Shown: positions 18,801-43,163 of the stretch, in pieces | How the letters are laid out: every line of letters starts with the position of its first letter | Position numbering within the stretch: position 1 is the first letter of the stretch | Assembly: GCA_965649765.1 (NCBI GenBank) | Contig: OZ287754.1 | Location: 16,244,001 to 16,308,000 of the forward strand | Direction of reading: 5' to 3' | Source: Bispira polyomma | Taxonomy: Eukaryota | DNA length: 64,000 nt | Made by a program: the position numbers and the translations under genes | Notes under the pieces: model-generated | The model's database searches: none | The model's input: only the letters and a program-made list of their open reading frames with translations | What the model was told of the DNA's origin: nothing

Positions 18801-21800
18801 GTAACACCAGGGTTCCTAGGAACCACTCTTATTTTAGAATTTAGCCCAGGCAGGTGTGGTCTGAATTCCACTTCATCAAATGTGTGTCAATTTATTGTTG
18901 TCAATTATTGTGTTTATATAAAATTGTCATTAATGGATGTATGAATGTATACAAAGTGTTAACAGTTAGTATGTTAGTTTCAGTTCAAGTCGAGGTCATT
19001 GACAACGGTATCAAAAAATGGCCAAGCAGCATGACAAGCAAGCATGACAGCAACCAAGCAAGACATGCAAGCCAAGCAACCAAGCAACCAAGCAGCTTCC
19101 TCTATTTATTATTGTATATTATACACTAAATTCCTTACTACACATATATTGACTTATACATGTACGGATCGCTAAACTTGATGTTAAGGGCTGAAATTTT
19201 CAGCCATTTAAGGCTTAGTGAGCTTTGAGATGGTGCCTTGGACTTTAAAGACATTGCAATATACACCCTTATTTTTATATACAGGTTTTTAGTATTTAGC
19301 TAGTTAGTGTATCTGTACTTTTACTTACATGGTTACTGTCTTTTTAATGTGGTTATTGTCTTTGTTTTTACTATGATTTTTATGCTATAATTTGTAAAAT
19401 TTATTATATACTTAAGGCCACCTTATAGTCAAAACATTTCGTAACATTAACTAGACAAATGTAAGGCTAAGGCCAGCAGAATTCATGTAATTCGTTAAGG
19501 TTACCTTAAATTTTGGTAAAATTAAACTTAAACTTAAAGTTACGTTAACCTTAAACTTAGTCGATGCAAAGTCACTCTTAAGGTGAACTTAGACTAAGCT
19601 CTTAAAAAAATTTTCTTTTAAGGTGGCCTCAATTATCTTAATAGATTAAATATATATATCCCAACTGCAAGGTCAATTTCTTACAAACTCAAGGTCAGGG
19701 CATTGTTCAAATAATTTCCTATGTTCCTTTGTTTACTTTACATACAGCACCCATCAATCTGAATCTAGTTGGGTTTTTAAAATTAATCATTTTCTTTGTT
19801 AACTTTGCAAAAAGTCAAAGATAGTTGAGGCTGACCTTAATCTCCCTCGTTTTAATTACTTAAACCCAATGAAGCTACGGTGGCACTTCATTCACTTATT
19901 GAATAATTCTGTAGATCTATTAACATAAAAAAAAATAATAATAACATTTCAAATTGTACTCTTTAAATACTGTGTTATCTGCAACATCAAGGTCACACTG
20001 AAGGCCACTGTTTACATATAGAACCCATCAATTTCAGTTTAGTTGGGTTTTATCTTGCTTTCAACAGCTTAGGTTATATTGCGATGGCCACATTTAAAAA
20101 ATGCAAGAAATCAGTGCTGAAGCACTGTGTAAACTACCAGTCCATGGCAAGTACCTGACAAAGTTTTTCCCACATAAAGGAACGAACGGGATTTGAACCC
20201 ACATTTGGTGAGAGGAGAAGTGACACTTTTAACCACAAGGCCACCAAGGCCCGTATAGCACTCACAAAGTCCTAATGTCCATTTTGTGTATACCAAGACC
20301 AAGACTTGTTAAGTGGTCATCCCGGACAATGTGTATACCTATCTTTAACCTGGATATAAGACCAGATCTTGTGCATCTCAAATAGAGTGATTTAGTAACT
20401 AGGATGCAAGGCCGAAAAATAATATAAATATAGCAGTGACAATGGCAATGTAGAGTTACCCTGTCCAGTGCATATTTTACTGTAACTCCACCATTTAGTG
20501 TGCATCATGGCCTTCATTACATAAATATACCACATGGCCATTGAGACTTACCTTGTCCAGTGCAAATTTCACTATAACTCCACAATTTAGTGTGCATCAT
20601 GGCCTTCACTACATAAATATACCACATGGCCATTGAGACTTACCTTGTCCAGTGCAAATTTCACTATAACTCCACCATTTAGTATGTATCATGGCCTCCA
20701 CCTCCGCCTTTGTGCTGGCATTGCATTTTTTCCCCTCTACCAAGGCCTTCTTCAAACACTTTGTGTACGTTTTGGTTATTCTCTTGGCATTCCTACAGAT
20801 CATAACAGTTACACACACCAATTGCAAATTTATCATACTAATGAATGCCGTATTAAGAAGGCGTCTGTGCAACAGAACACAGCTTTTAGTGATGTCACGA
20901 AAAATTATCTTATGGCATGACTCTCAGTTACCAAACAGATAATGTCAGAAAAATGACGGCTTGTTTATGAAGAAAAAAATGTTTTTTTTAAATTTTTTTG
21001 TTCATGCTCATTGTTAAACATAATGTGTTCCATACCCATATTTTTTATGGTTTTTTGTAGTGCAATACTTTCCTACCCTGATATTTTCAGACATAATATG
21101 ACATCAATCATCTGCCCAATTGAGCTCTCTATTATTAGTGTACGCTTGCAAATGCGACTCTCGGCTTGTGTTAAGAAAGTCAACCCTGGACCTCATGGCG
21201 AAAGTACACAGGAAACTAGACCGAATAATCTGTCTCTGTTTAGCGAGATTCCTTACTGATATTTTGACGATGGAATACACGAAATGGGACATAAGTAAAG
21301 CGTTTGAAATTTAGTGTGACATAAATGGCTGACAGAGCTGTGTCAATATATGTGATTATATCGGCATGAAATAACAGAAAATCGGCTACTATATCAAATA
21401 TAAGCAATGAGGGGATGTATTTATTTTGAACTGATCCTATCTAATATATATGCCGATTTTGGAAGCCGCTCTGTTGCCAATCGGCTACATCTGACTAAAA
21501 AGCCATTATTCGCGACAGAATACTCGGTTTGTTCATCTATACAAGGTCATTTGGTATTAATTTTTTTTTGTCTTATCCTATTGATTAAAAAAAATTTAAA
21601 AATCGGACCAAGAAACTTTTGGCCTTCAAAATTATATACCATGGCAGATCTTCCACAGAAATAAAGATGTGTACATGCCAACATCCACTTTAGACATTTT
21701 TTTTACAAAAAGGTCACCACATCAATGTCAAAAGCTCTTATGACTTAGCTAAGACAATAGTCTTGCGTTTAACACTGGTCTTAGCAAAAGTTCAGTCTAA

Positions 21801-24800
21801 GACTCAAGACCTTTTGTGAATCTGGCCCCAAAGCCGAGCCAACATTGTGTTGCACTCTTGAGCAAGAAAAGAAGTAGCTTTTACTCCAGATATTGAACCG
21901 AGCTGTGTTTACCATTTTTAAGAGAGTTCAGTTATTATTTAGTCAAGTTTTAAATGGAATACAGTGGGTATATTCATCTTGGACCCATCTCTTTACTCTC
22001 ACTTACCCTCCATAGACATCTTTCTTCTCCACATCCCTCCCGAACCACAAATTTTCTTTAGAAACGAACCATGATTTTACCAACTTTGTCAATGATGTTG
22101 TGCTTTAGAAGATGCCTGGCATCAGTTAGACGAGTTAAAAGTATATCAATGTCAAAGCTCTAATGCCATGTACTGTATTTTTTTTATTAGATGAATGCTA
22201 TGATACATGTAGCATACAGTTATGCCGTCGTCATACTGAGCACGTCCATGTTACGTTTAAAATTTCGTAAACATAAGAAAACGGAAATAAACAAAGTGAA
22301 AATTTATGGAAATGTAGCAAAAAAACAATGGTTGGGCCGTTTTGTACACGTTCTGTACACATATGTACACATTTGTACACGCATTTAACATATTTTATTA
22401 GCCGTTTCAATTATCTTTGGACTGTTAGCCACATTTTAAAATATGTTACCTACATTTTTAAACACATTTCAATCTCGTTCTCTTTAGTTTAAATATTATT
22501 TGAATGTATAGTACGTTTAACTCCTTTAAATCATATACACATTGAATATGTGCCATACGTTACCCGCAAGCGCACCAACTGTTTGAGGAAAATTGTACGA
22601 AATTTGAGACGTTCACAGGCGTTTTCCTTATTAAGGGTCATCTTACTCACGCATGCTTAAGTGTGCTTACGTTTACTTAAGTATACTATGTTCACTACGC
22701 AAATGCTTACATTTCACCTTACCATCTTTTGTCCATAATCAAAACCTAAGCCCAGTGGGACCATGGCATTATTGTTAGATATGTAAACTTCAGTCTATGT
22801 TTAGTATTAGGTTCACAGGAGTCAACATATCACCGAGAAAACAAAAAACTTACTGGCACAGATCTTTTCCGACAGAAGTTTGCAGCTTTTCAATGTTGGA
22901 AATGTATCTGGCCTCGCATTGGTTCTTTTTGCTGATGTATTTTCCTGGCTTGTTACATGCTTTCAAAGGAAAGTATAAAAATATGTTAAAATATGGAAGC
23001 TCTGGCAAACTTTACTGATAATTATAGTAATATAACACGTTTTTTCAGGCCTCATTGGTTTTTAGTTCACTGTTTTTTATGCCCAAGGGCTTTTCTGATT
23101 TATTTTTTTGGGGCTGCTGAAACCCCATAATGCCATACAAAATCATGTGATTGTACCATTGTAGAAAGATGGATAATTTATTTATTATAGTGACATGTAC
23201 ATATTAAAATACAATAGCATAATTTCAAAATAATTTAAAACAAAGATGTACCCAGCCCCACATAGACTTATATGTCACTATTCCACAACTAGTGTGAATA
23301 CAATTACATATTTAATAATCAACAACTACAAATAGAATATGCTATATCTTCGATTTTTAGAAAAACAAGATTCTTTATAAAATAACTAATACTGATTTTC
23401 GATTTTCCAAAGAAGAAACTAGGTATTTTGACAGCTGTTTCTGATAATTTTAATTAATATATCAAAATTGATCATCATAAGTCATATTTACGAATGTAGA
23501 ACATGTAACAGATATAATACTAAACCCTTTTTGTCTCGACAAATTGTAGATAACATAATTTACATAGTCGTTGTTCTATTTTTAATGGCTGTAGCCACCT
23601 GAAACTGTATGATTAATTATGGTAAATGACATTGTTTTAACTTCTATAGCGCAACAATCGACGGCCAGGAATCCTCTGTGGCACAAATCCCAATCAGTAT
23701 GCAAAAGAATAGTCTGACACGAGAAAATGTTCGTGATCAGAATTCAGTTGTGACTAGGAGACAAATGTTAAGGCGAATTGATACAGATGTGTTTTGAGCT
23801 TGCTTTTTCCTAAAGCCTGTAATCCTTGTCCCTGCAGCCAGTTTTTTTGGGGAAAAACTACACATAGAGGGACGAATTCGTCTGGTAAGATAGATAGTAG
23901 ACAGTATAGATGATAAGTAGGAAGGTTACTGCACATAGACAGTTTTAAAAATACCTTGACTTTTATCTTGAATTTAATATGGAACTTAGTAGGCAGATAG
24001 TGCAATTTTGTAAGCAAAGGTGGCATGTGAGTTCTTTTGAAATTGTTAAGCTTGTCTATTTGCCCTTGTCAAATTACTTTCAGTAGTGAGTTACAGTAAT
24101 CAAGTAGACTTGCCACTGGGGCATTTGCAACTGCAACAGCATTTTCGATACTTAGGTGCTACAATGCTGCAGTAGCAAGATCGACAGATGTTTCAAACAT
24201 GTTTCTTGAAGGAGAAATCAGAGTCAAAAGTGACTCCCAGGATCTTGTCACTGTCAACAGGAAAGGTGCTGTTACCACAGAGTTGCTGGAAAGAACTTTA
24301 AAACCTTTTTCCTCTTATGTTTGGAGCTAATAACTAGAAATTCTGTTTTGTAATAATTCATTAATGATTCAATTGATATGAGGTATTAGAACGCTGTTTC
24401 AGGACCAGATAGCTGGTGCGAGGATATTACTTTTCCATGTAGAGTTGTGTACAGTGAAAACATCAGGGGTCGGAAGACAGAACCCTGTGTGACAGGAGAT
24501 CGAAAGGAGGCTGCTTGGCTCTGCTTACACTGATGATTTAATCACGGTGGTCTAAATAAGATTCATGGATGTGATTGATGGACAAGTGCTTATTTATTTG
24601 AAGTGCAACAGCCAGTCCATAAGATCAAGTAATATCAATTGTGAAGACACATGAACACACATAGGTTATCATATAACAACTTTATTTTAAAACACTGATT
24701 TGGGTAAAACACTGACATGTTAAAACATTCATATTAGTACTACTGTTAGCACGTTAGTTGTTAGCTATACACTTTATTACAACAGTTGAGGAGAATTTGA

Positions 24801-27200
24801 GGTCACCTTGACTTCTCCTGAATGTATGAAAACCAAATTCAGCAGGTTCCAGATCCATGGATACTATAAGTGATTTGAAAACGCTTCTGACCTTTGAGGC
24901 TGATAACATCATTAATTTGTCACTAGAAAAAATTTGAAACAAAGCGGGTTTCCAGAGATTTTAAGAAACTTTATCATTGACTTTATAGCAGAAATAGGAC
25001 ATAAATTGGAGCCTCTTAACTCAGGAGGTTGTACCACTTGATATAAACCTAAACGCTGCATGTTCTTAGCATACTTACTAATGATATGCATACCAGGCTT
25101 GCCAAAGACTATGTACAACACCACAGGTAATCTTGTTTTGTCACAAACTGATACCACTGAGCATACTAAAGAGGCTAAACGGTAGAAACCAAAAAGGGCT
25201 ACTACAAAAAGTGCCTGAAACACTGGTGCATTAGAAAGCTCTTTGGTCTTTTTAAGAAGTTCTGTTAACATATCTAAAGTGATGATACCTTTAATGTTTA
25301 GCAACAAAGGAGCATTAGCTCTTACAGATCTTATCATTAACTGCACTTGTTTACTCTTGAGTGCTAAAGTTGGCCAAAAAAAAAGACATTTTGCAATTAA
25401 TTAGCTCCCAGTCCATTTTAAGCCAAGAATTCAACATAAGCTACAACAGTTACTTCATCATGTGGAGTGACCAAGTCAACAGCAACCATAAAGACCAGGA
25501 ACTGACGAAACCTGGCAGCATAGGCGGATGCGGTTTGTAAAAATCAGAACTTCAGTATGTCTCCTTTCCCGCAGTCCACATGCAACAAGTATACAGCAAA
25601 TTTACTCCTAGAATAAATGAATGTGGGGGTTTGTATAGGCAGAAAATATTGCGGGAAATACATAGACAGTTCAAGCCACAATTAGCTCACACCCATGCTC
25701 AGACTCTTGCTGGTCAAAAAACTCACTCTGTTCAATGTGACCGACATTTTGATACAAAGTCTAGCCAGAAACCTAGTCTTTCTAGGGCTAACAAACTTAT
25801 CCTCATATGTACTGACCTATAATGCTAATATTTACTCGTATGTGTTCATTTCTTGATCAGCTTAGAGGCTCAAATTTGCTACTGGTCTGTAATTTTAAAG
25901 ATTATTTCCATCTAAGTTTGGAGTAGAGGAGTAACATTGGCAGTTCTGAAAGACTTTGAGAAGCAGCCCGCTTAAAGCAAGTAGTTTTTATGTTTGTTGT
26001 GGGAGAATATCTATACAATCCTTCAGTAAGGAAGTAGGTATTGAGTCCAGGTCGCATTTAGATGGTGATAAAGTAATGATTTTAGGGACGTCATCGCTGA
26101 GTATTCTAATCTTATTTAAGGTAGATGGTTTGTGTGGTGGAGTTAGGATGTTGAGAGAGGTGGATGGTTTGAAAGCCATACAGATTTTATCAATCGTCTA
26201 AAACAAAATATTTTTAAAACATTTTGGCTGCTTAATTAAGGCTGGTACAGTCCGGTAGAACAGGATCTCTAATTTTATAGAGGATCTTTTCTATAGATTG
26301 CCATAATTTCCCAGAGTCGGTGCTGTTTTTGGAGATGAGGTAGTAACAATGATTTTTTTAGCTTTTGATAGGAGCCTACTATAGTGGTTGACAGCAGCTC
26401 TAGAATGTGATCTGTCTATCCTGGATTTGTATGACACAATATTTTCTCATTGAACCTTTTTTCGTCTCTTGGGATTGAGGATTTCTAAAGTGATCCAGAT
26501 GCTGTCCGGGTGCGACAATGCAGTTTTGTCGTGGAAAGGTAGGCACGATAGTTAAACATTTCTCCAAGGGCAGTGTTATATTAATCACACAGATCAATTA
26601 CATTTGTCCTTGGGTTTCTGACAAGTTGGCAGGATGCAAGGTCAGCTTTAAACCTGTCATTGTTGATTGTATTTGTTTTTCTAAATTATAATAGTTTCGC
26701 CCACTGTGTATTTATGAAGAAATTTAATGGAGAGAGCGACATTGAAATGATCAGTAATACCCTTTGCCATGTATGATTCTACAAAGATGGAAGAGTCTGT
26801 CTTTGTTAATACTAAATCTAAAATGTGAGTATGAATGTGGGTTTACTTTTTGATGTATGTATTAAATGTGGATATATTTAATATTTCCATCATGTCAGTC
26901 CAGTCAGAAGCAAAGGAGGATTTTGAACAGAGGCTTAGCGGTCTATAAAATGTCAAGAGGCAAAAAGAAAAGGAACCATGTGATATTTTTAGGTAGATGG
27001 ATTCTGAAGAAGCAAAACTAGGAAGATTGATTTTAACCACATCAAAAATCTTTCTTTAAAAAAAATTACTATTTTTTCCTGTTTCTATTCTAAATGGTAA
27101 AACCGAACCCCTACTCTAAACTGAGCTACAATTTTAACTTACCCTCATTTAGGCCAGCCCCCAAGAAAATCACAAGAACTAAACTGCAAAAGAACTTCAT
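532..27200 (-). CDS. Multi-exon gene for a secreted protein with >=7 tandem six-cysteine domains (3' end lies outside the window)
   Basis: 14 exons with GT..AG boundaries and fully compatible phases: 27143-27200, 22854-22959, 20644-20792, 13513-13636, 11272-11411, 10593-10716, 9623-9768, 8108-8198, 6785-6936, 6266-6380, 5657-5796, 4815-4911, 3237-3385, 532-628. They splice to 1688 nt (562 codons + 2 nt) with no stop. Cys spacing is conserved between the repeats. Confidence 0.88.
876..1241 (+). mobile_element. 3' end of an L2/CR1-like LINE
   Basis: ORF remnant GSRALPIAAPLLWNSLPVDLRS matches the typical L2 ORF2 C-terminus; (TAA)n tail. The same 3' UTR recurs at ~4620, ~8020, ~13020, ~22060 and ~44310. 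Confidence 0.75.
2481..3130. mobile_element. Non-autonomous DNA transposon (MITE) with ~25-bp imperfect TIRs
   Basis: Left AAGTGGGGGTTCCACATTCAG vs reverse complement of right end AAGGGCGGGTTCCACTTTCAAG; flanked by TA on both sides. Confidence 0.7.
3237..3385 (-). CDS. Exon 13 (domain 6B) LQGPMLMLGEACMRKAVFLGRCGDNKQMEAEALIQYSRNQLSALCSTFF
   Basis: tgtAG acceptor, GTAATG donor, phase 2-1. Confidence 0.88.
4010..4215 (-). mobile_element. tRNA-derived SINE
   Basis: Reverse strand has tRNA A/B-box-like head (cctagtggttagaagc...gttcaaatc) and a tail related to the SINE copies at 20036-20252 and 36765-36995. Confidence 0.65.
4237..4561 (+). repeat. 23-bp minisatellite (CAGTGTTTTAACTGGCCATTTCT) x ~14
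   Basis: Directly visible tandem array. Confidence 0.95.
4815..4911 (-). CDS. Exon 12 (domain 6A) DCEFDVVYEAIKESCVSQFGLFINLGSSVYC
   Basis: ttttcAG acceptor, GTAATA donor, phase 1-2. Confidence 0.88.
5657..5796 (-). CDS. Exon 11 (domain 5B) TITTTLVATENCILGRLSEMKCDADLSVPAQTLIDSGKHNYNKLCG
   Basis: gttttAG acceptor, GTAATA donor, phase 2-1. Confidence 0.86.
6266..6380 (-). CDS. Exon 10 (domain 5A) MECETIPMAVETIGHCLLAVSGLIEDLTLNPADLNYC
   Basis: tttttcAG acceptor, GTATGA donor, phase 1-2. Confidence 0.88.
6785..6936 (-). CDS. Exon 9 (domain 4B) SSMSYLVSLVSCIITALHDKTCLMTLPSVASSSAYILQQAIGAFFAPLFS (lacks Cys6)
   Basis: ttctctgcAG acceptor, GTATGT donor, phase 2-1. Confidence 0.85.
7151..7405 (+). 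mobile_element. tRNA-derived SINE (full length)
   Basis: GGTGGCCTAGTGG A box, GAGTTCGAATCCC B box, (AAATTC)n tail; second copy at 14003-14232. Confidence 0.85.
8108..8198 (-). CDS. Exon 8 (domain 4A) QCQSEMNQTRLDVTACMELNAANMPDLTV (lacks Cys3)
   Basis: tttatcAG acceptor, GTAAGT donor, phase 1-2. It is required to bridge exons 7 and 9 in frame. Confidence 0.8.
8219..8849. mobile_element. Harbinger/PIF-type MITE
   Basis: TIRs TGGTCTGGTCACACCTACACGT / ACGTGTAGGTGTGACCAGGACA with TAA target-site duplication. Confidence 0.85.
8880..9190 (-). mobile_element. tRNA-derived SINE, second family
   Basis: Reverse complement matches the + strand copy at 49433-49760; partial copy at 13810-13990. Confidence 0.75.
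9228..9377 (+). mobile_element. L2-like LINE 3' tail with (TAGAT)n end
   Basis: Near-identical to the reverse complement of 59735-59885. Confidence 0.8.
9623..9768 (-). CDS. Exon 7 (domain 3B) EAPEAVQSFGQCLSWASSAGGCTSGMSVLRDHLVNLAWNYYSAACASY
   Basis: tcacAG acceptor, GTAAGA donor, phase 2-1. Confidence 0.88.
10256..10610. repeat. ~117-bp tandem repeat x3 that duplicates the 3' end and donor site of exon 6
   Basis: ccacttactg(g/a)cagt(c/a)aaccaactgga at 10352, 10469 and 10585. Confidence 0.9.
10593..10716 (-). CDS. Exon 6 (domain 3A) CQNESAFQAAVAVCMGSLLDYRDSLPVDIASNPLLQLVYC
   Basis: cctttAG acceptor, GTAAGT donor, phase 1-2. Confidence 0.88.
10932..11090 (+). mobile_element. tRNA-derived SINE
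   Basis: ggtggcctagtggg A box, then tccttgggcaag core-like motif. Confidence 0.65.
11272..11411 (-). CDS. Exon 5 (domain 2B) AMSQSTKDLEQCWRDTITSANCSQLKHNDIDILTRLAWQNYEFTCE
   Basis: ttttAG acceptor, GTACTG donor, phase 2-1. Confidence 0.88.
11867..12538 (+). repeat. 224-bp tandem repeat x3, nearly identical
   Basis: aaatcagatactgcaag recurs with a period of 224; only ~2 substitutions, in copy 3. Confidence 0.95.
13513..13636 (-). CDS. Exon 4 (domain 2A) CQDEDLYYAGLVSCQDTYNETMQAQFAVQEVHSNYLELFC
   Basis: attcAG acceptor, GTCAG donor, phase 1-2; lies within ORF 13467..13667. Confidence 0.88.
14003..14232 (+). mobile_element. tRNA-derived SINE (5'-truncated copy of 7151-7405)
   Basis: High identity to 7176-7405. 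Confidence 0.85.
15069..15350 (+). pseudogene. Truncated gag of element 1 (N-terminal C-x2-C-x3-H-x7-C finger), fused by deletion to pol
   Basis: CRACKTSHRKPINDNC matches CSVCSGRHGRPVGKKC of element 2. At ~15350 the sequence jumps to pol QNKQKFGFIP (QNSGKYGFIP in element 2). Confidence 0.8.
15402..16931 (+). pseudogene. RT-RNase H of element 1, missing RT motif A
   Basis: NYIDD, DACLQG, LEMINI and TADLLSRW are present. 34 codons including the D of K-x-DISRAF are missing relative to element 2. Confidence 0.88.
16949..17939 (+). pseudogene. Tyrosine recombinase of element 1
   Basis: FLRISN, WTKT, FHTFRRSG, GIW and WRY motifs; frameshift near 17025 and a TAG at ~17201. Confidence 0.88.
20036..20252 (-). 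mobile_element. tRNA-derived SINE
   Basis: Reverse strand reads ggtggccttgtggttaaa...gggttcaaatccc. Confidence 0.75.
20455..20697. repeat. ~92-bp tandem repeat that duplicates the 3' end and donor site of exon 3
   Basis: ttacc(t/c)tgtccagtgca...catcatggcc at ~20456, 20548 and 20640. Confidence 0.9.
20644..20792 (-). CDS. Exon 3 (domain 1, B half) NAKRITKTYTKCLKKALVEGKKCNASTKAEVEAMIHTKWWSYSEICTGQ
   Basis: ctgtAG acceptor, GTAAGT donor, phase 2-1; lies within ORF 20609..20872. Confidence 0.88.
22854..22959 (-). CDS. Exon 2 (domain 1, A half) CNKPGKYISKKNQCEARYISNIEKLQTSVGKDLC
   Basis: ttcctttgaaAG acceptor, GTAAGT donor, phase 1-2, C-x12-C. Confidence 0.85.
23690..27050 (-). mobile_element. 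Decayed L2/CR1-like LINE (EN + RT), interrupted by a YR fragment
   Basis: Remnants TFYRP (EN), SKCDLDSIPTSLLKDC, LDYCNSLL and LTKLHYLP, with many stops and frameshifts. Confidence 0.75.
24800..25537 (-). pseudogene. Tyrosine recombinase fragment of a Ngaro-like retrotransposon
   Basis: TASAYAARF, FGFYRLASLV, LCPISAIK and FGFHTFRRS; homologous to the YRs of elements 1 and 2; contains stops and frameshifts. Confidence 0.85.
27143..27200 (-). CDS. Exon 1 of six-Cys repeat protein: signal peptide MKFFCSLVLVIFLGAGLNE(A)
   Basis: ACAATG start, hydrophobic core and GTAAGT donor in phase 1. Splicing gives ...LNEA|CNKPGK, a plausible cleavage site. Confidence 0.8.
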
Positions 27201-29025
27201 TGTGAATTTGAGCACATCCGTGTATTGGCCTCAGTATTTTATTACTCCATTGGATCACTGATATAAAATATGAAACATCAAACCCCGGGGATTGTGTCAT
27301 ATTGTGGGCGAAATTTTAATGTAGATGCTTATTTTGCAAATAATATGTACATATATTATTGATTTATTAGTATTAGTTCGTTTTGCATTAGTGTCCATCA
27401 TCAATGATATATTTGTTTGATATTCAAGTGCCCCATTGTAGCATAATTCATATATTTTAATGTAGAAACTGTTTGGTATCAATTAATAATGGCATGTTTT
27501 GGTTATATTGAAATCCCCCATTGTAGAACAATTCATAATTATTAAAATAAAAGCAACTGTTCATTGTCATTTGTTATTCTGGACAATAATATGCAGATAT
27601 GTTTTACAAAGAAAACAAAATGGCATGGGATCCTTTGATCATCAATAAAAAATGATCATCAATATTAATTGATCCACATTATATTTATTTAAATAATAAT
27701 GATAGATCTTAACTAAAAAAAAGTCATATATATTCCTACTAAATAAATGCATTGCAAAAATTGAAAAGAATCAACAGTAATATATTTTTTGTTTCTTGTG
27801 AAAATATGTAAATTATGTTTTCATACAAAAACAGCAGTCACTCTCTTCAAAAAGGTACACAGATATTCCTTGTTAAAACAAGTAACGTTTATTATTATCA
27901 TGGAATGATGAAGTTTCAATAAATATGCACTCAAACTTTTTAAACCCCTTAACAGTTCACCTTGATTCATGCAAAGTATTTTTGTCATCACTTATGGAAA
28001 AACCATGTTCCAAAAACATAAAAAGTTGTTAAAAATGATGGAGAAACATTACACTCGAAAATAGAGTCTGTAGATTGTGTGACCAAGAAATTGAGGGCAA
28101 GATTAATCTTATTTTTTTTTTACTGTAACTACCACAAAACTGAGAGACCTAATACATTGAATGGAACTCTTTTGAAGATAACAAAACAGTTGACCTTTTA
28201 AAGCAGAAACATAGTACTAACATCTTTAAGGACTATATAGTAAACATATTCTAAAATAGGAAATCTGTTTTGAACAAGCAAGCTGTAACCAATTAAGAAT
28301 GGTATGCATCAATAAACTAAATCCATAAATAGTGTGTAAATTTATATATTATAGAATTGTATATATTTTGATATAATTATATATAGTAATATATATTTGT
28401 ATATGTGTAGTTAAATATTTATATGTAGGCAGTACTTCATAAGCTTGAGTTATATTGGACTGGCTGTCTAGCTAATGTATAATAGTTCATGTTTTATATA
28501 TACGCAGGTGGCACTATAATAAATCAATTCTCTCTCTGTCTGTATATTTTTGGCAAAACATTATATAAGCTCCAACATTCATATTGTACCAACTGATACA
28601 ATGAAGATGTTGTGTTTTGTTTCTGACAGAAATTATTTTACAAATATTTTTTTTTAAAACAATTTTTTTGAAGCAGCTTTTTGGAGATTACTTTAGAATG
28701 CTTCCATGTTGCATTATTCAATCCAATTTTACCTGTGTTCCTTTATAGTAGTTTTTTCTATTTATTTATTTATTTTTTTTTTTTTTGTTGTACCAAAAAA
28801 ATACAAAAATACATTTGACACATCTTATTGAATGTAATCAATTTATTACAACAAAGGCTTATACCACGATGCTAGTTACCAAATCACACAAAAAAAACAT
28901 TTATACTTTTAAGTTTTCCCATACTTCCCATTTCTGGTGGGCTGACGCCCATGCGACAGCCCCCCTCAGTTCTGGTGGCAGGTCACTGGGAGGCTAATTA
29001 AGCCACCTGGGGTCACGGGGGCAAG

Positions 29026-29064
29026 TATAAAAGGGATTGCCGCCAACAGGCGCCATCATTAGTT
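29026..29064 (+). promoter_or_regulatory. TATA box and initiator-like sequence in the A region of element 2
   Basis: TATAAAA at 29026, then CGCCATCATTAGTT ~25-30 nt downstream. Element 1 has CATAAAA...CGCCATTTT in a similar position. Confidence 0.55.
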
Positions 29065-29165
29065 AAAAACAGTTCATAGATACAAGTGTTTTACAATTGG
29101 GGCTTTTACTACCCAGGGCTTTTACTACCCAGATATTGTTTTACATTTTAATTGAATGTGTAGTC

Positions 29166-30137
29166 ATGCCTAAGGAATACCCGTGTAGTGTATGTTCTGG
29201 TCGGCACGGACGTCCAGTTGGAAAGAAATGTAAATTTAATCCGTTGGACAGCGTCGCTGATGAGGTGGCTGCCGTTGATCTGCCTGTTTCTGATTCCGTA
29301 TCTAGTTTGATACTTCAACAACTGGTCGTGATGAATGAGAAGATGGACAGCATGGATCGAGTACAAGCTACTGAGGCGGCGCTGTGTAAACCCAGCGCGC
29401 AGGCATGTAACACAGTTTCTAAACCTGTATCTAATGTCCCTAGTGTTAGTGAACCAGTGTTTGAGGCCGTTGTGCCCTCCCTAGATTACCTGCGTTCAAA
29501 TTCCAGCTTACAAAGTCAGGTAGACCAGCGCTTGCTGCAACTGCAACAACTCCATGATTTAATGGGAGGTAAACTGAAATCCCAAAGAGGTGGCGCGGAA
29601 GCTCCCGTTAAACGTCATGTTGATTGGCCACAAAATTTTGTCTTATCTGGTGTAAAAAAGGTTAGACCCACTTACGATGACCTTACTTTGGTTCAGTTCG
29701 TCCCCGGGTTTGTTCGCTGTACGCAAGAGCAAAAAGAGTCCTCTGTCCGCAAGGCCATGTTGGAATATCTGGCATGCCTGATGGATGACGCCCATGATTT
29801 TTCGTGGGACGCCGCCAAAGCCGCTCACGCCATTTTGTTAACCAACATGGAAATGGACCGATTGAATTGGACGGATGTCGAAAAGGTCGACCGGATAAGG
29901 CGCGCTCATGCACAGTGTCATGTAACGTCCTCAGCTAGTGGGTCTGGCCTTTCTAAAAGCAATGTTGGCAGTAGGGGTAAAACAGTTGGAGTAAACTGTC
30001 GATTCTTCCAAGAAGGAACGTGCAAATTTGATGCCAGCCATCGCACTTCTGGACAGTGGTTCAAACACTGCTGTGAGAGCTGTGGTGGCACGCATCAAAC
30101 CAAGTTGTGCTCCAAAAACTCGGTGTCAAAAAACTAA
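29166..30137 (+). CDS. Gag-like ORF1 of element 2 (N-terminal Zn finger, coiled coil, C-terminal Cys/His fingers)
   Basis: MPKEYPCSVCSGRHGRPVGKKC...GKLKSQRGG...WPQNFV...CRFFQEGTCKFDASH...HCCESCGGTHQTKLC. Confidence 0.88.
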   Translation: MPKEYPCSVCSGRHGRPVGKKCKFNPLDSVADEVAAVDLPVSDSVSSLILQQLVVMNEKMDSMDRVQATEAALCKPSAQACNTVSKPVSNVPSVSEPVFEAVVPSLDYLRSNSSLQSQVDQRLLQLQQLHDLMGGKLKSQRGGAEAPVKRHVDWPQNFVLSGVKKVRPTYDDLTLVQFVPGFVRCTQEQKESSVRKAMLEYLACLMDDAHDFSWDAAKAAHAILLTNMEMDRLNWTDVEKVDRIRRAHAQCHVTSSASGSGLSKSNVGSRGKTVGVNCRFFQEGTCKFDASHRTSGQWFKHCCESCGGTHQTKLCSKNSVSKN

Positions 30138-32608
30138 GGGGCCACTGCAGTATTGCAGTGGCTGCTAAGAAACTTGTACATAAAACCTGCTCTAGAGTTG
30201 TATATAATTCTACTTTTAGGGATTTTAAACTGTTTGATCATGTGTGTTGTAAATATGATGTGTATACTGGACCCCGACTTAACAGGTCATACCGGGACGT
30301 GTTGCAACAGGGCCTTGTGGTTACTGATACCGAGATTTGTGGAAACCGGGAAATGGGAAAAGTTAACCCTGTTTCTGTTAATAAAACCCCCCAAGGTAGC
30401 AAACTTGTGTTCCATAATACCTCATTGCACAAGGTGTCGGGAAGGAGGCATTCACCTGTGAAAGTGTTAAATACACCAGCTGACAGGCAACGTGAGAAAA
30501 CAAATCACCAAAAGGTGTTAAGAAAAACACCTTTGGGTGGTGTGAAAACATCCGTGAATAGGCGGGTCGGTAACAATGCAAACCGGGTGTTACAAAACCA
30601 ACCAATTGCGTCCAAAACAATTGAACTAAGTGATGGCGAAGGGTGGCCTAAACTTCTGGGTTCTCCGAGTGTGAAAACAATTGGCGCGGGTACCACTCCA
30701 AGTAATGCTAACAATAGTGGGTTTCGCCTTCCCATTCATAACCGGTTTAGTTGCTTAGACATTCCTGATGTAGAACTTCCTGACTCGAGTGACACGTTAG
30801 GTAAGGTCGATTTCACACCTATTCTACCACCTAACAAGAGATCTAACCCGTGTGATGACAAGTATGTACTGGACCTCTCAGGAGGCCTTGATAAAAGACA
30901 GCGCTTAAATGCAGCTAAAGATAATGTGACCTACAAGTTGTGGGATATACAGAATAGTGGAAAGTATGGGTTCATACCAACTAGTTCCTGGGGTACCCCA
31001 GTGATTGATTGTTCCAATAACCAATTGATCACAGACGTGTTTACACTACATAAGTCCCTTAAATTGGATGGGAGACCAAATTATAAGGGTTTACAAGTCC
31101 CCATACACACCCAACTGACGGTCCCTGCCTGGGAAAAGTATTTAGCGAATTATTGGGATTGGGAACTCCCCTTACTGATAAAATTCGGATTTCCTCTTGA
31201 CTGTAATGAAGAACATGAGTTCAAGTCTGACTTGAACAATCATGCTTCAGCCAATCAATATCCTGAACATGTGAACCATTACCTGGAAGAAGAATGTTCT
31301 ATGGGTGCTATGTATGGACCTTTCGTCCATCCCCAAATTGATGATGTGCACACATCCCCATTTATGACTAGAGACAAATCAAGCTCGGTTAACCGACGAG
31401 TCATAATCGATCTGAGTTGGCCCATCGGTCATTCGGTTAATGCAGCCGTGTCATCGAATTCGTATCTGGACAAGGAATTTGTACTTACTTACCCTTCTAT
31501 AGATGACATAACCCAACAAGTGTTGCAAAACGGTAGGGGCTCCTTGCTATTTAAAGCGGATATTAGTCGCGCATTCCGTCACGTGACCATAGACCCCAGA
31601 GACATCAATCGTCTGGGCTTATACTGGGACGGCTACTATCTCGACGGCTCGTTGCCCTTTGGCTACCGACACGGTTCAGTGATTTTTCAGAGAATTTCTG
31701 ACAGTATAAGGTATATAATGGAAGGTGAAGGTCATCAAATCACCAACTATATCGACGATCTCTTATGTTCTTCTGTTCCCTCAAAAATCTATAAAACGTA
31801 CCACCGACTGCAGGCCCTTTTGGCCGAGTTGGGTTTGACTCTTAGCAAGAAGAAGCTGGTTCCTCCAGCCACCCGGGTAACCTGCCTAGGCATAGTTATA
31901 GATACAGTTCGGTTCACTACATCGATACCAGAGGACAAACTAGCTCAGGTTCAAAAAATATGTGGCAATTGGAGTGATAAAAAGCAGTGTACTAAGCGGG
32001 AGCTCCAATGTTTATTGGGTTCTTTGCTATATATTTCTAAATGCGTGAAGTACTCACGATTTTTTCTGAATCAGATGTTGCAACTCCTCCGAAGCAATCA
32101 CCACAAAACAAGTATCAAAATTAACCCTGAGTTCAAAAAGGACCTTAACTGGTTCATTGAGTTTCTCCATAAATACAATGGGGTGACATTTTTTCATCAT
32201 GCCCCCATTACTGACATTGTAGAGTTGGATGCCTGCCTAACAGGCATGGGAGGAGTGTATGGCAAACAAGTATATTACCTTCCCATTCCTGCTGCTATGC
32301 ACAAACATAATATTGCTTCATTGGAGATGCTGAACATTCATGTGGCTTTGAAATTGTGGGGCAAATACTGGCAAGGACGTAGACTGTTAATTAAATGTGA
32401 TAACCAGGCTGTTGTAAGTGTCCTTACTCATGGTAGAACTAGAGATAGCGAATTAGCCCTGTACTCGCGGAACATATTCATGCTGGCTAGCAAGCTCGAT
32501 GTAGACATACAGGTGGTTCATATTCTAGGAAATGACAATACCACTGCTGACCTCTTGTCTCGCTGGACAAATTCAAGTAAGGATAATGTTCTCTTACAGG
32601 AGCCGTGA
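30107..32608 (+). CDS. Pol (reverse transcriptase + RNase H) of element 2
   Basis: KADISRAF, LPFGYRHG, NYIDD, DACLTG, LEMLNI, CDN and TADLLSRW. A small frameshifting deletion near 32600 shortens the C-terminus; the ancestral stop is probably at 32641-32643. Confidence 0.92.
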   Translation: MLQKLGVKKLRGHCSIAVAAKKLVHKTCSRVVYNSTFRDFKLFDHVCCKYDVYTGPRLNRSYRDVLQQGLVVTDTEICGNREMGKVNPVSVNKTPQGSKLVFHNTSLHKVSGRRHSPVKVLNTPADRQREKTNHQKVLRKTPLGGVKTSVNRRVGNNANRVLQNQPIASKTIELSDGEGWPKLLGSPSVKTIGAGTTPSNANNSGFRLPIHNRFSCLDIPDVELPDSSDTLGKVDFTPILPPNKRSNPCDDKYVLDLSGGLDKRQRLNAAKDNVTYKLWDIQNSGKYGFIPTSSWGTPVIDCSNNQLITDVFTLHKSLKLDGRPNYKGLQVPIHTQLTVPAWEKYLANYWDWELPLLIKFGFPLDCNEEHEFKSDLNNHASANQYPEHVNHYLEEECSMGAMYGPFVHPQIDDVHTSPFMTRDKSSSVNRRVIIDLSWPIGHSVNAAVSSNSYLDKEFVLTYPSIDDITQQVLQNGRGSLLFKADISRAFRHVTIDPRDINRLGLYWDGYYLDGSLPFGYRHGSVIFQRISDSIRYIMEGEGHQITNYIDDLLCSSVPSKIYKTYHRLQALLAELGLTLSKKKLVPPATRVTCLGIVIDTVRFTTSIPEDKLAQVQKICGNWSDKKQCTKRELQCLLGSLLYISKCVKYSRFFLNQMLQLLRSNHHKTSIKINPEFKKDLNWFIEFLHKYNGVTFFHHAPITDIVELDACLTGMGGVYGKQVYYLPIPAAMHKHNIASLEMLNIHVALKLWGKYWQGRRLLIKCDNQAVVSVLTHGRTRDSELALYSRNIFMLASKLDVDIQVVHILGNDNTTADLLSRWTNSSKDNVLLQEP
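30128..30162 (+). promoter_or_regulatory. Predicted -1 programmed ribosomal frameshift signal (gag to pol)
   Basis: A_AAA_AAC in the gag frame just before the TAA stop, a 6-nt spacer, then the perfect hairpin GCCACTGCA-GTAT-TGCAGTGGC. Pol is in the -1 frame. Confidence 0.8.
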
Positions 32609-32724
32609 CAGAGGACCACTTACTGCTTAATCACCACATTTAGATATTGCTTGTCTGGTTGCATGGTATTATGTTGATCAGCCTTTACAAATGTTACTTT
32701 GTCTGCTTTGTGTTTGTGTTATAG

Positions 32725-33713
32725 CTAGAACTCCCCTGCAGCAGTTATTATATCAAAATGCAACAAAGAAGCTTCACCTGGCCTTCTGCAGGTCTACAGA
32801 CAGATCTTATACTGCGATGTATAGGGTGTACCAAGCTTATGCATCCTTCTCGGATCTGCCTTGTGACCAGGTGACAGCTATTGATCTTCTTGCTTTTTTA
32901 GAATTGTTACACTTTAACTCTGTAAAACCTGCCCATATGGCTAATTATTTATCTGCTATTAAAGCTAAGAGTATTGTATACAATGTGCCCATTCATGCCT
33001 TCAGTGACCCTCGCTTGGCTTACTATCAAAAGTCTGTCCAATTAGCTGCCCCCTTAAATGTTCAGCTCAAAAAGATTATAGACATACCTCTTCTGACTAG
33101 TATTGTCAATGTCTCCAACACCACTTACATGGGTCCTATCTTTACAGCTGTGTATTTGGTCAGCTACTTTTCCTTCCTCAGGTTATCCAACTTAGTACCT
33201 CATTCTTGTCTTCAGTTTTCTGCTTTGAGACATCTATCAAGGGCTGATGTTATGTTTCACAGGGACAAAGCTGTCCTTTTAGTAAAATGGTCCAAAACAA
33301 TGCAGAGTAATAATCAGATTAGACTTATTACTATCCCACGTTTGGTGGGTTCCCCTCTTTGCCCTGTGGGGTCACTGCAGGCAATTATGGCTCTTACTCC
33401 GTCTGAACCTAATTCACCCTTATTTCAATTGAAAGACAAATCTCACTGGGTTCCGCTTACTGACACCCGTGTCCGCAGGCATTTCAAAACGATACTTGCC
33501 AGGCTCCAGTTGCAGGATTCTGGCCTCACACTGCACGCTTTCCGACGTTCGGGTGCCACTTTTGCCTTTAACCATAACGTCAGCATTCAGAACATCCAAA
33601 AACATGGCACTTGGACGTCGGATTACGTGTGGAGGTATGTTACCGACTCAGTGGATGCGGGACAGCAGGTATCGGACACATTTCGTCTTCATCTTGCTAC
33701 TTGTTCTTCCTAG
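32725..33713 (+). CDS. Tyrosine recombinase of element 2 (intact; probably entered via a splice acceptor at 32724)
   Basis: Catalytic residues R (FLRLSN), K (WSKT), HxxR (HAFRR), W (GTW) and Y (WRY) are present, with no internal stops. Confidence 0.92.
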
Positions 33714-34829
33714 CTTCCTACTTGCTGGGTTTGGGTGTTTCTACTCAAAATTTAGTCTATATTTTCATATTCTAGATAATTATGTAATTTTTGCTTTACA
33801 TGTAGTCACATGCTAGTCATGTATAGTGTCATATAGAATTTAAATTACTATTTCACTTGCTAGTCATTTCATGTTACAACTATAAAGTTAACTTCACAGA
33901 GTAGTATTTTATTTCCTAGTAATTGTATGCTACAACTATTAATTCAACTTCATGAAATAACTGTTTCATTAAAAGGTAATAGAATCTGTAATTAACTGCA
34001 AAATTACAACTTAACTCTTCTTCTATACATTTTAGGGTCACCTCAATTTTTTAATTCCCCTATGGGTTAAAAATTTTAGTATACTAACCTGTATTTAAGG
34101 TGATCTTTAGCCCCCCTTTTGTAGTCTAAATTATAAGATCATCTCCATTTATAAGTACCCTACGGGCTTTGTCATTTCACTAATTTAAACTGTGTTGGGG
34201 TGACCTTATCTTGTTCTTTGAAGTTATGTAAAATATTTTATTACTTTCACTCAATTTAGTATGACTTAAAGTTACAAATTATCATGACCTTAAGTCACGT
34301 TGTATATAGTAGTTTAACATAGACTAACAATAAAATATTTTACCGCATTCTGCTTACTTACTATCTTGCCTTCTTGACCTCTGACCCTTTGGCCTGTCAC
34401 GCGGGGAATGTTGTTAAATTTTTGTTTAATTTGATTTACTTTAGACAAAAATTTATGTTCTGAAAATACATTTTTAAATTTTTTCTGAAGAAAATAGATG
34501 TTAAATTGAAATTTCCTTCTTGAGCACCAAATATGTAATACCTTAATACTAGTAGCAACAAGTTCAGTGGTGAGAAATTTATGTCCATTTCTTCATACTC
34601 TAAATTTGTCTACCATAACATAGATCTATTTTACGATCCAACTTATTATTAAAGATTATTAAACTTATTGTCAACGTAAGTGCACTGAGTAAAAATGTGG
34701 TGGAAAGAATCTGGATGCTGCTTACAAAAATTGCAATGGTTGGAATCAATTACTTTTATCTTATGCAAATATTGATTGGTATCCAAAATGTTAAAAATTA
34801 TTTTATATTGAAACCATATTAATGCTTTT

Positions 34830-39618: not shown

Positions 39619-39929
39619 AAAAGCTCCTCACATTTAAACTAGTAGTCGAGAAAACAAGACATATATAAGGCATTACAACATTTTCAATATACGCGGGGAA
39701 ACTGTCAGACATCTTCTTTTATAAATTACTTTAGTCTTTTAGTCTGTTTTATCCTATGCGGTAGCAAGAATATTTGTATACACAAGGGGTAACTTATAGA
39801 CATTGGCTTGATGGCAACCAAGAAGGACCAGAAGGTGGTTTCTCAGTATTCTCTCAGATGGAAACAGTCGCACATAACCTGTCTCCGTCACAGGGCAGTA
39901 GTAGAGTGAATCCCTGTCATTCGGAATGG

Positions 39930-40634
39930 GATTCACATCAGTACAAGGTTGAGGCCCAGAAAAAATGTGAATGAGCAAAGTTTATTGCAAATGCAGGCTA
40001 TTAGTGGCCGGTTACAGGTGTTAGAGGAGGACAAGTCTAAATTCAGTAAAGGTAAGCAAAACCAAAAGGTGGTCATTCAGCCACGCCCTAAACGTCAGGT
40101 TAAAACTGTAGTAGAAACTGCATACATAAAGCAAAATGTGGTATGGCCCCATGAGCATGTATTGGCAGGGTCAAGTCAAGAAAGGGTTAGCTAAAACCAA
40201 CTCACCGCATTAAAGTGGATGTCTGGCTTTTGTCGAACCATGAGCAGAGCAGATGTTAGAATATGTGATAGCCCTCTTGGATGATGCACAGGATTTCTTA
40301 TGGACTGCTGCCAAAGCCAGACACACAGTACTCCTATATCGCATGAAGCAGGCAGAGATTCAAGATTAGTAGGAGGGTGATAAAATTGACGGAGTTAGGT
40401 GAGCAAATGCTCAAAAACACACATATGTCAGTGCTTCTGCATCTAGTTCACAAGATAAAAACCAGTGATACACTGTGGGGCCAAAAAACTAAGTCCAACT
40501 ATTACAATAACTGGAAATGTAAACATACAAAAAGCCAAGAAACGGCTGGCACTTTGTACAAGCATATTTGTTCCTCCTGCTTCGCTCTAGATGCTAAATC
40601 TACTATGCCCCCCGATTCTGAGTGTAGAAACTGA
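39930..40634 (+). pseudogene. Decayed Ngaro-like gag
   Basis: VVWPHEHVLAGSSQERVS, WMSGFCR, LLDDAQDFLWTAAKA and YKHICSSC align with the Gag of element 2; many stops and frameshifts. Confidence 0.8.
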
Positions 40635-41569
40635 CTTAAAATTGTTTAAAATACAAGTTTTTAGAGTGACAGTCATTAATTAAATGCTTATATCTCAGTA
40701 AATATAGGTGATACCTATTTTTACATTATATATTATAATATATATTATAAAGCTAGATAAATATGCTTTCTGGAACTTTCTGGAGTCAAAATATGTTATT
40801 TATTAGGTGAGAAAGTTTACTTTAAAAGGAGAATTTTACAGCGAACCCACCAAAACGGCAGCAAAAACGTAGTACAGCAAAACCTCTGGTAATCAGCAGC
40901 GACACCTGGAGTCACTGGTTTAGGGTCAGTTGTGGTTTTCCAAATGTGATAGGAAAATACAGTGATTCAGAGGTTGTTACAAAAAACACCAACAGAATGA
41001 TGGGGCGGAGAGAAGGGTAAAGTGATAATGCAAGAAAGGCCCACAAGTTTGAATACAAGGTGACTGTTTGTTGTACAAAAACTGATAAGTATAGTGTTGC
41101 ATGTGTTGGCAATTGTTAAAATATTGACTAGTATATCAGAGACAATTGTCTTACAAAATGCAGATGTAGCATGTAAATTACAGTCCTTCAATAGGTTATA
41201 ATAAACATCCAGACAATTGTAGGGGCAGTTAATAATTATTTTATAAATTTTTAATTATAATTTGTTTTTAATATTATTTTACATCACAGCATATTATTAT
41301 TTTTGTTCAAAATGATAGCCCACTTTTTGGAGGGCAAAAATAGAAATCCCTGGGGGCGTTTATTACAGAAATTACAGTAATGCTATACATCTGAATAATA
41401 AAATAACACAAAGAAAACTCTAAACAACCCTTTAGCTGACCTGCCCTAATGAGTATAAAGTTTTAGGAGATGTGTGAGTGAGGACTACAGGTGTATATAT
41501 ATTCATTCAGTAGTATATGCAGAGATAGATTGAGAGAAAGAAGCACATTAGGGTAGATGCATACCTTTT

Positions 41570-43163
41570 AGAAAGACGCATACCTGATGGTTTTAAAACA
41601 GCTGTGGTTACTCCTCTTATTAAGAAGGCTTCTCTTCCAGTTGATGCCCTAAAGAATTATCGCCCTGTATCTGGTCTTAGTTTCATATGAAAACCAGTTG
41701 AACGTGTGGTTGCTAGGCAACTGTTAGATCACATCTTTGACCACGACTTAGACATCCATACCAGTCTGCATATAAAACAGGTCATTTGACTGAGACAGCT
41801 CTTCTGTCTATAAAATATGAAGTTCACCTATCTTTGGCAAGAGGGGAATCGACTGTCCCGGTATTGCTCGACCTCTCTGCTGCCTTTGACACCATCGATC
41901 ATTCCACGCTTCTCAGTTGTCTTCAGACTTGATTTGGAGTTAGGGGCTCTGTTCTTAAATGGTTCACTTCCTACTTAACTGATCGTTATCAGTCGATAAA
42001 AATTGGCTCTACTTTGTCCGCTCTTTGTGAACTCTTGTTTGGTGTTCCTTAAGGTTCTGTTTTGGGCCCTCTGTTGTTCTCATTATACACTGCCCTTCTC
42101 AGATTAGTTATTGGCAAATACACAGGTATTAAGTTTCATTTTTATGCAGATGATACCCAAATTTATGTGCACCTATCCCATAAGAACACATCCACTGCCT
42201 GTGAACAGTTGAACAGGTGGCTTGACGATGTGAAAGAGTGGATGTCAACTGGTAAGCTCAAACTTAATCCCGACAAGACTGAGTTCATAATCTTTGGCTC
42301 AAAACAACAGAGGGATAAGTTGAAAGCATTGTTTCCAGTTGACACCCTGGGTAGCCCTTTCAGCCCAGTTGATTCTGTCAAGAACCTGGGTGTATGGTTT
42401 GACTCTGACTTTTCTTTCTCTAAACACGTTCAGAGTGTCTGCAAAAGTTTTTTTGTGCAACTCCGGGACTTTAGACGTGTCAGGCGGTTTCTCACTTATG
42501 ATGCTTCTATACTTGTGGCCAATGCTTTTGTCAGTAGTAGACTGGATTACTGCAATTCGCTTTTCAGGATTCTCTCAAAGTTTAATTTACGTAAATTACA
42601 ATGCATTCAAAATAGTGCAGCTAGAATTGTGTCAAACACCAGTCGATACACCAGTATAACTCCTGTTCTTAAAAAATTGCATTGGCTCCCTGTTGAACAG
42701 CGTTCAGTGTTTAAGACAGCTACACTTGTTTATAAGTTTCTTCACACTGGGTTTCCAAAGGATTTTGCCCCATATCTTTCCACTTATAGTAGTTACTACA
42801 ATACCAGACGTAGTTAGAGTGGTAGTAATTTCCTTGTTGTTCCGAAGTTCCATCCATCTACTCAAAAGTCGGTTAAACAGTTTGGTCACAGTTTTGCTTT
42901 TGCTTTGCCTTTGGAATGCTCTTCCTGATGTGATTTGTGCTTCCCCCTCACTAGCCTGTTTTAAAAAGCAGCTTAAAACCCACTTTTACACTTTAGCATA
43001 CCTACCTTAGTCTTAATCATCCCCCGGCGCACTCTATGGTGCTGACTCTTTTCTGTCCCTTAAATTTGGAAATTGGATTGCTGTCTATTGTGTTTGTGCG
43101 CCTTGGAGTCCCCTTTGTTAAGCGGAGATTAAGTGTGATAAAAATTTACTTACATTACATTAC
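41570..43163 (+). mobile_element. 5'-truncated L2-like LINE (RT domain)
   Basis: [51 protein letters not shown] and LHWLP; (TTACA)n tail. Confidence 0.9.

Follow-up and report, generated by a model that had tools for sequence, protein, structure and literature searches.

The gag/pol junction of a retrotransposon

We analyzed a 64,000-nucleotide (nt) window of the Bispira polyomma genome (assembly GCA_965649765.1, contig OZ287754.1, positions 16,244,001 to 16,308,000, forward strand), which contains a tyrosine recombinase (YR) retrotransposon with a candidate -1 ribosomal frameshift signal where its gag and pol open reading frames (ORFs) overlap. A first-pass annotation of the window had picked out this junction. 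The element and the junction comprise the following features, in window coordinates:

28935–34409, + strand: putative copy of a Ngaro-like YR retrotransposon, ends approximate, made up of A repeat, ORFs and B repeat and lacking A2–B2
29166–30137, + strand: gag-like ORF1 of 323 amino acids (aa), from ATG at 29166 to TAA at 30137, with a C-terminal Cys/His knuckle and the end ...SKN-stop
30077–32608, + strand: pol ORF in the -1 frame, open from stop to stop, with an N-terminal linker, reverse transcriptase (RT) as well as RNase H, and no methylase
30128–30134, + strand: slippery heptamer A_AAA_AAC in gag phase, from direct reading and conservation
30135–30140, + strand: 6-nt spacer TAAGGG, whose first three letters are the gag stop TAA (replaced by TGA in some related contigs)
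30141–30162, + strand: GC-rich 9-bp stem with a 4-nt loop, likely the frameshift stimulator, from folding and conservation
32631–33713, + strand: YR ORF (HAFRRSGAT...Y), without pol overlap in this copy

ORF1 was labeled gag by its position and its Cys/His knuckle. The RT domain of Pol matched Pfam RVT_1 (E 3e-8), and pol in this copy stops slightly early, with a small break near 32600. The 3′ end of gag reads TCA AAA AAC TAA, placing the heptamer AAAAAAC, which is also that of the gag-pro junction in mouse mammary tumor virus, in the X_XXY_YYZ phase. The hairpin that follows consists of GCCACTGCA (30141–30149), a GTAT loop and TGCAGTGGC (30154–30162), with all 9 bp paired; a tenth pair, G-U at 30140:30163, is possible and would shorten the spacer from 6 to 5 nt, both within the 5–9 nt rule for the distance to a stable 3′ structure in a canonical -1 signal. 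The heptamer, the 6-nt spacer and the perfect stem claimed by the first-pass annotation were borne out by direct reading, and its estimate of a fusion of about 1150 aa agrees with the 1,147 aa that we computed for the Gag-Pol slip product. The annotation was also right that pol is open in the -1 frame without an early ATG, but the first in-frame ATG, at 30353, lies 73 codons past the slip and not about 80.

The folding energy of the hairpin was -15.6 kcal/mol, or -17.2 kcal/mol with the G-U extension. Both strands of the window together contain 882 X_XXY_YYZ heptamers; the site at 30128 had the strongest downstream hairpin of them all, and no other reached -15 kcal/mol. Likewise, the hairpin was the only 30-mer region of the element's coding span to reach that threshold. 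Its fold z-score was -4.8 over 33 nt, none of 200 shuffles being equally stable, and ranged from -1.8 to -3.8 on wider frames. The bare pattern of a heptamer followed by a perfect 9-bp inverted repeat is not unique in the window, recurring at three AT-rich sites, so what makes the case is how stable the hairpin is, where it lies and how well the signal is conserved. The sole candidate pseudoknot partner was a 4-bp loop complement about 50 nt downstream, which we did not count as evidence. Rfam gave no match at E ≤ 1 over 28900–34500, and the exact signal pattern had no match among viral contigs and none among prokaryote contigs. The slip signal is not a chance occurrence.

As judged from sequence, the element very probably makes its RT as a Gag-Pol protein through programmed -1 ribosomal frameshifting at the heptamer and hairpin. 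A_AAA_AAC ranks among the most shifty heptamers, and the usual spacer is 5–9 nt, according to the portions of PMC5009743 available to us. On A_AAA_AAC, ribosomes would pause: the hairpin would sit at their mRNA entry channel, and their next codon would be the gag stop, at which most would terminate, releasing the 323-aa Gag. A minority would slip one base back, with tRNA-Lys and tRNA-Asn re-pairing on AAA AAA, and would read on through ...SKN-LRGHCS... into the 1,147-aa Gag-linker-RT-RNase H protein. The outcome would be a fixed, retrovirus-like high ratio of Gag to Gag-Pol and, with no protease involved, an RT that stays tethered to the particle.

Conservation of the slip site and the stem

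The heptamer in gag phase is read as Lys-Asn, and this dipeptide (KN) forms the C-terminus of 27 of the 55 near Gag homologues (33–60% identity). For a wider sample we built a profile from the window Gag and 22 homologues picked for KN-type ends; it matched 3,575 representatives, and the 150 best matches among these were used. The sample comprised 203 distinct Gags, and excluding 111 that lacked an intact C-terminal Cys/His knuckle left 92. Of these, 37 ended in KN and 22 in KNx, and the total of 59/92 compares with a mean of 8.4 and a maximum of 19 in 2,000 tail shuffles. Among representatives under 50% identity the count was 28/56 (5.0 in shuffles), and KN stood anywhere in the tail of 69/92 Gags (30.7 in shuffles). 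The residue before KN was S, P, A, T or I, as expected if only the third base of its codon matters to the heptamer. Three Gags without KN (P0268, P0284 and P0307) had PN or GN in the tail, which at the protein level would suit C_CCA_AAC or G_GGA_AAC.

The slip site was also visible from the pol side. KK[LPRQ] occurred among the first residues of 12/120 Pol calls, as read in the -1 frame, two of the 12 fitting less well; Pol KKL corresponds to Gags that end KN-stop, and Pol KKR to KNE or KND Gags. The stem was read through as HCx(x)AV in 7/120 Pol calls, compared with one match in 89,434 other residues, and was visible in other frames in 5/203 Gags that were frame-broken or lacked a stop. P0043, P0044 and P0194 retain P-L-Q-x-C-S-G, and P0304 (A-L-Q-C-S-A) and P0208 (G-T-A-K-L-Q-C) both imply G-C (or G-U) in place of C-G at pair 30142:30161.

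At the DNA level, we aligned public contigs of three runs, which come from at most two samples of one study, on 30080–30215. Contigs piled up on 30126–30162 to 4–9 times the depth of the flanks, which were unlike one another: depth on the signal was about 18,700 against 2,100–3,500 in run X1, 4,670 against 500–970 in X2 and 2,800 against 490–670 in X3. In all three runs, loose contig ends lay just 5′ of 30126–30128 and just 3′ of 30161–30164. Since these ends bound the signal, diverged families share the 35-nt stretch and little around it. The sole listed change within the signal was A>G at 30136, which turns TAA into TGA and keeps the stop. The signal, the open -1 frame and their conservation are all observed, and the slip signal is real and strongly conserved. 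The heptamer and stem are thus found in relatives, on which the first-pass annotation had made its reading depend, both in the excess of KN Gag ends and in the shared 35-nt DNA island; of the compensatory stem changes it called for, one pair was found flipped on both sides, as deduced from amino acids.

Several observations weigh against this reading. No tail KN was present in 23/92 knuckle-intact Gags, and 33/92 did not end in KN or KNx. The Gag profile was made from KN-ending rows, which may have biased the representative search toward KN. The contig data come from the few samples named above, the listed changes leave aside differences near contig ends, and the palindrome may inflate depth; the covariation amounts to two proteins and one pair, deduced from amino acids. 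In-frame Gag-Pol fusions numbered zero among 6,197 longer-protein candidates, which is a weak test. Finally, in L001, a distant relative (26% Gag identity) that was the sole locus obtained from 43 candidates when Gag was aligned against metagenome contigs, pol directly follows a TGA in gag's own frame, without a strong hairpin (1300–1350). This junction reflects either stop readthrough or decay; the YR of L001 is broken near 4040, and L001 may be a decayed copy. An alignment search with Pol found no relative in the viral or the prokaryote contig collection.

L001 bears on whether the signal serves another kind of recoding, in which ribosomes read through the stop codon or RNA polymerase slips along the A6 run, and the 0 frame of the present element does stay open for another 107 codons past its TAA. 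A readthrough product, however, would keep the gag frame and never enter Pol, and in homologues the stop varies between TAA and TGA and is placed 0, 1 or more codons past KN. For polymerase slippage a run of six A is short, and neither a downstream hairpin nor a terminal C would be needed. We regard such recoding as the least probable of the alternatives considered here.

Start codons, splice sites and the recombinase

Pol might instead be made as a separate protein by termination-reinitiation or leaky scanning. Its start would then be AUG 30353, a GUG within the 3′ arm of the stem or an AUG that overlaps the gag stop. Some homologues have the appearance of such starts: the Pols P0106, P0136 and P0175 begin MRHC..., which fits an AUG overlapping UGA in KNE-type Gags, and 25 Pol calls start, with ATG or GTG, 9–18 residues ahead of the conserved motif and near the stem Val codon. 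AUG 30353 also has a favorable context, with a purine at -3 and G at +4. This copy, however, has no AUG at the gag stop, and all seven stem-reading Pol calls have Val, not Met, at the stem position. Three out-of-frame AUGs precede 30353, and an RVVYNS-like motif, found in 52/95 long-linker Pols compared with 5.2 in shuffles, lies upstream of this first in-frame start in the present copy. Since reinitiation would also leave the in-phase invariance of KN before the stop unexplained, we consider a separately initiated Pol very improbable here, though it may occur in the relatives whose Pol begins MRHC.

An alternative is that Pol is translated from an RNA in which a donor within gag has been spliced to a pol-frame acceptor, leaving the hairpin some other RNA role such as packaging or dimerization; splice-like signals are present elsewhere in the element. 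An acceptor-like tract does stand right after the hairpin (exon start 30220), but it is weak and in phase 2 of the pol frame, while the best gag donor is in phase 1. Across 30077–31000 a single phase-1 acceptor, at 30882, exceeded 0 on a rough hand-made matrix; it is weak as well and would lose conserved linker motifs. Splicing also does not account for the fixed spacing of heptamer, stop and stem, and we judge this route even less probable than a separate Pol start. Programmed -1 frameshifting accordingly remains our preferred reading for Pol.

Candidate splice sites also bear on the recombinase. The YR frame has no start codon ahead of its conserved N-terminal part. Scoring with rough hand-made matrices, which covered 315 GT sites in the element, pointed to three candidate sites (slash, exon border):

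29566–29574, + strand: candidate phase-1 splice donor in gag, GAG/GTAAAC, at a nearly invariant Gly135
30798–30806, + strand: candidate phase-1 splice donor in the Pol linker, TAG/GTAAGG
32703–32726, + strand: candidate phase-1 splice acceptor opening the YR frame, exon start 32725, same register in 3/3 elements

The linker donor (30801) ranked first of the 315 GT sites; the gag donor (29569) ranked seventh and was the top site in gag, with a counterpart in L001. A T-rich tract and AG in phase 1 stood ahead of YR in 3/3 elements with DNA at this point (the 28935 element, the one at 16949 and L001), and a conserved A-F/A-H was equidistant from the YR acceptor in all three. The predicted joins to 32725 are both open and would encode 463 aa from the gag donor and 874 aa from the linker donor. 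Among the 17 closest Pols, 12 of the 13 that could be evaluated had G[K/E], which fits G/GTAAG, 40–47 residues past an NRF-like motif, a count made without a shuffle control.

These features raise the possibility, to which we give somewhat less than an even chance, that slip and splice are combined: joining 30801 to 32725 would yield an 874-aa Gag-linker-recombinase, whereas unspliced RNA would yield Gag-Pol after the slip. If the linker donor is used, YR would need both slip and splice. In all three runs, contigs jump back from 30824 to 30775 and carry one added base, which amounts to an in-frame 51-nt tandem duplication; this duplication of 30775–30824 is a common family variant and would double the candidate linker donor. 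Separately, each of the window's three gag-bearing elements (~29160, ~15065 and ~39865), unlike L001, has an acceptor-like tract whose final AG lies 0–4 nt before the probable gag start codon, which suggests a 5′ leader intron.

Classification, precedents and meaning

The gag, RT/RNase H and YR ORFs stand in line, as in Ngaro-like elements of the order DIRS, which also lack a methylase and have split direct repeats, the latter seen here in a relative. The YR match to Pfam (E 0.0026) was under the curated cut-off, and the catalytic H-x-x-R motif was present. Available parts of three sources define Ngaro-like elements by the layout A1-ORFs-B1-A2-B2 (10.1101/2021.08.05.455354, PMC3266345, PMC8547959). 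These split repeats are absent from the present copy. Contigs connect the end of its B repeat back to the beginning of its A repeat (34408 to 28935). The left edge was marked by a step in contig depth at about 28934, and other contigs link 28933 directly to 34411, as expected of an empty site; these flank-to-flank contigs indicate that the insertion is probably missing on some chromosomes (polymorphic, hence recent). A neighboring relative at 14543–19706 (46% Pol and 44% YR identity) has both repeat pairs, with A1/A2 at 96% and B1/B2 at 84% identity. Its repeats lie on the + strand (A1 14543–14753, B1 17950–18356, A2 18356–18560 and B2 19349–19706), with about 790 nt from A2 to B2. A gag-into-pol deletion near 15355 removes its slip site and linker, making it uninformative at the junction.

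From the ORF order, the lack of a methylase and the split repeats of this neighbor, the element is most likely Ngaro-like, in a copy without A2–B2. This narrows the YR retrotransposon label of the first-pass annotation, whose reading of a retroviral-type -1 signal was supported. A DIRS1-like identity, which calls for inverted terminal repeats with an ICR and for a methyltransferase domain, was considered and rejected: terminal inverted repeats were not found in the element, and a Dam/MT Pfam match was absent from its Pol and from five homologues, the ORFs finishing soon after RNase H.

The window is AT-rich (30–44% GC) and contains further elements. A more distant relative is represented by a decayed gag remnant at 39860–40640 (+), which has no pol behind it and is hence uninformative at the junction; a broken YR fragment lies at 24766–25400 (-). 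We also noted an RT fragment of non-LTR (long terminal repeat) type at 42053–42814 (+), two paralogous host exons of the fatty-acid-hydroxylase family at 52308–52739 and 59037–59477 (+), and tandem arrays at 4195–4607, 11863–12539 and 20442–20717, with units of 23, 224 and 92 nt, respectively.

The junction resembles retroviral and LTR-retrotransposon gag-pol signals in its heptamer class, its 5–6-nt spacer, its 3′ structure and a -1 pol without a nearby start. Unlike them, it belongs to an element with neither protease nor DDE integrase, its gag stop falls within the spacer and its stimulator has the look of a simple hairpin. It also recalls the Sirevirus gag/pol junction, where a short hairpin (11-bp stem, 4-nt loop) is likewise conserved and shows covarying bases (PMC5009743). 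As far as the available text goes, Sirevirus pol lies in the +1 frame, with the mechanism left unsettled, whereas the stem described here comes after a canonical -1 heptamer. The same portions of that paper make no mention of DIRS or Ngaro. For Ngaro elements, Poulter and Butler (2015) proposed programmed frameshifting at the RT/YR overlap with no signal named, as quoted in the accessible part of PMC13003380. In contrast, the signal described here lies at gag/pol, and RT and YR do not overlap in this copy, which has a conserved candidate splice acceptor instead. The same idea is said to have been raised for ORF1/ORF2 by Poulter and Butler in 2015 and by Goodwin and Poulter in 2004. No gag/pol signal for YR elements appeared in the available portions of PMC3783388, PMC6681497, PMC7192593, PMC5405496 and 10.1101/2022.06.16.496473, and a literature search of main texts, seen in part and without supplements, found no defined gag/pol frameshift signal for YR retrotransposons.

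The signal is thus of a known recoding kind, in a lineage where frameshifting has been suggested and the signal is undefined in the literature searched. It would tie the suggested expression route of start-codon-less ORFs in YR retrotransposons to a concrete sequence, and, being a short, sharply bounded, widely conserved cassette that is directly reporter-ready, it makes the question testable. If the frameshift operates as proposed, it would extend the retroviral Gag/Gag-Pol logic to a lineage without protease or integrase, correct annotation in that Pol would begin at Gag's AUG, and provide a natural minimal hairpin stimulator with many variants. A textbook mechanism is only moderately surprising here; the slip-and-splice route to the recombinase would add to the surprise and, if true, would mean that frameshifting and splicing act in series to fix how much Gag, RT and YR a whole Ngaro-like clade makes relative to one another, all from one start codon.

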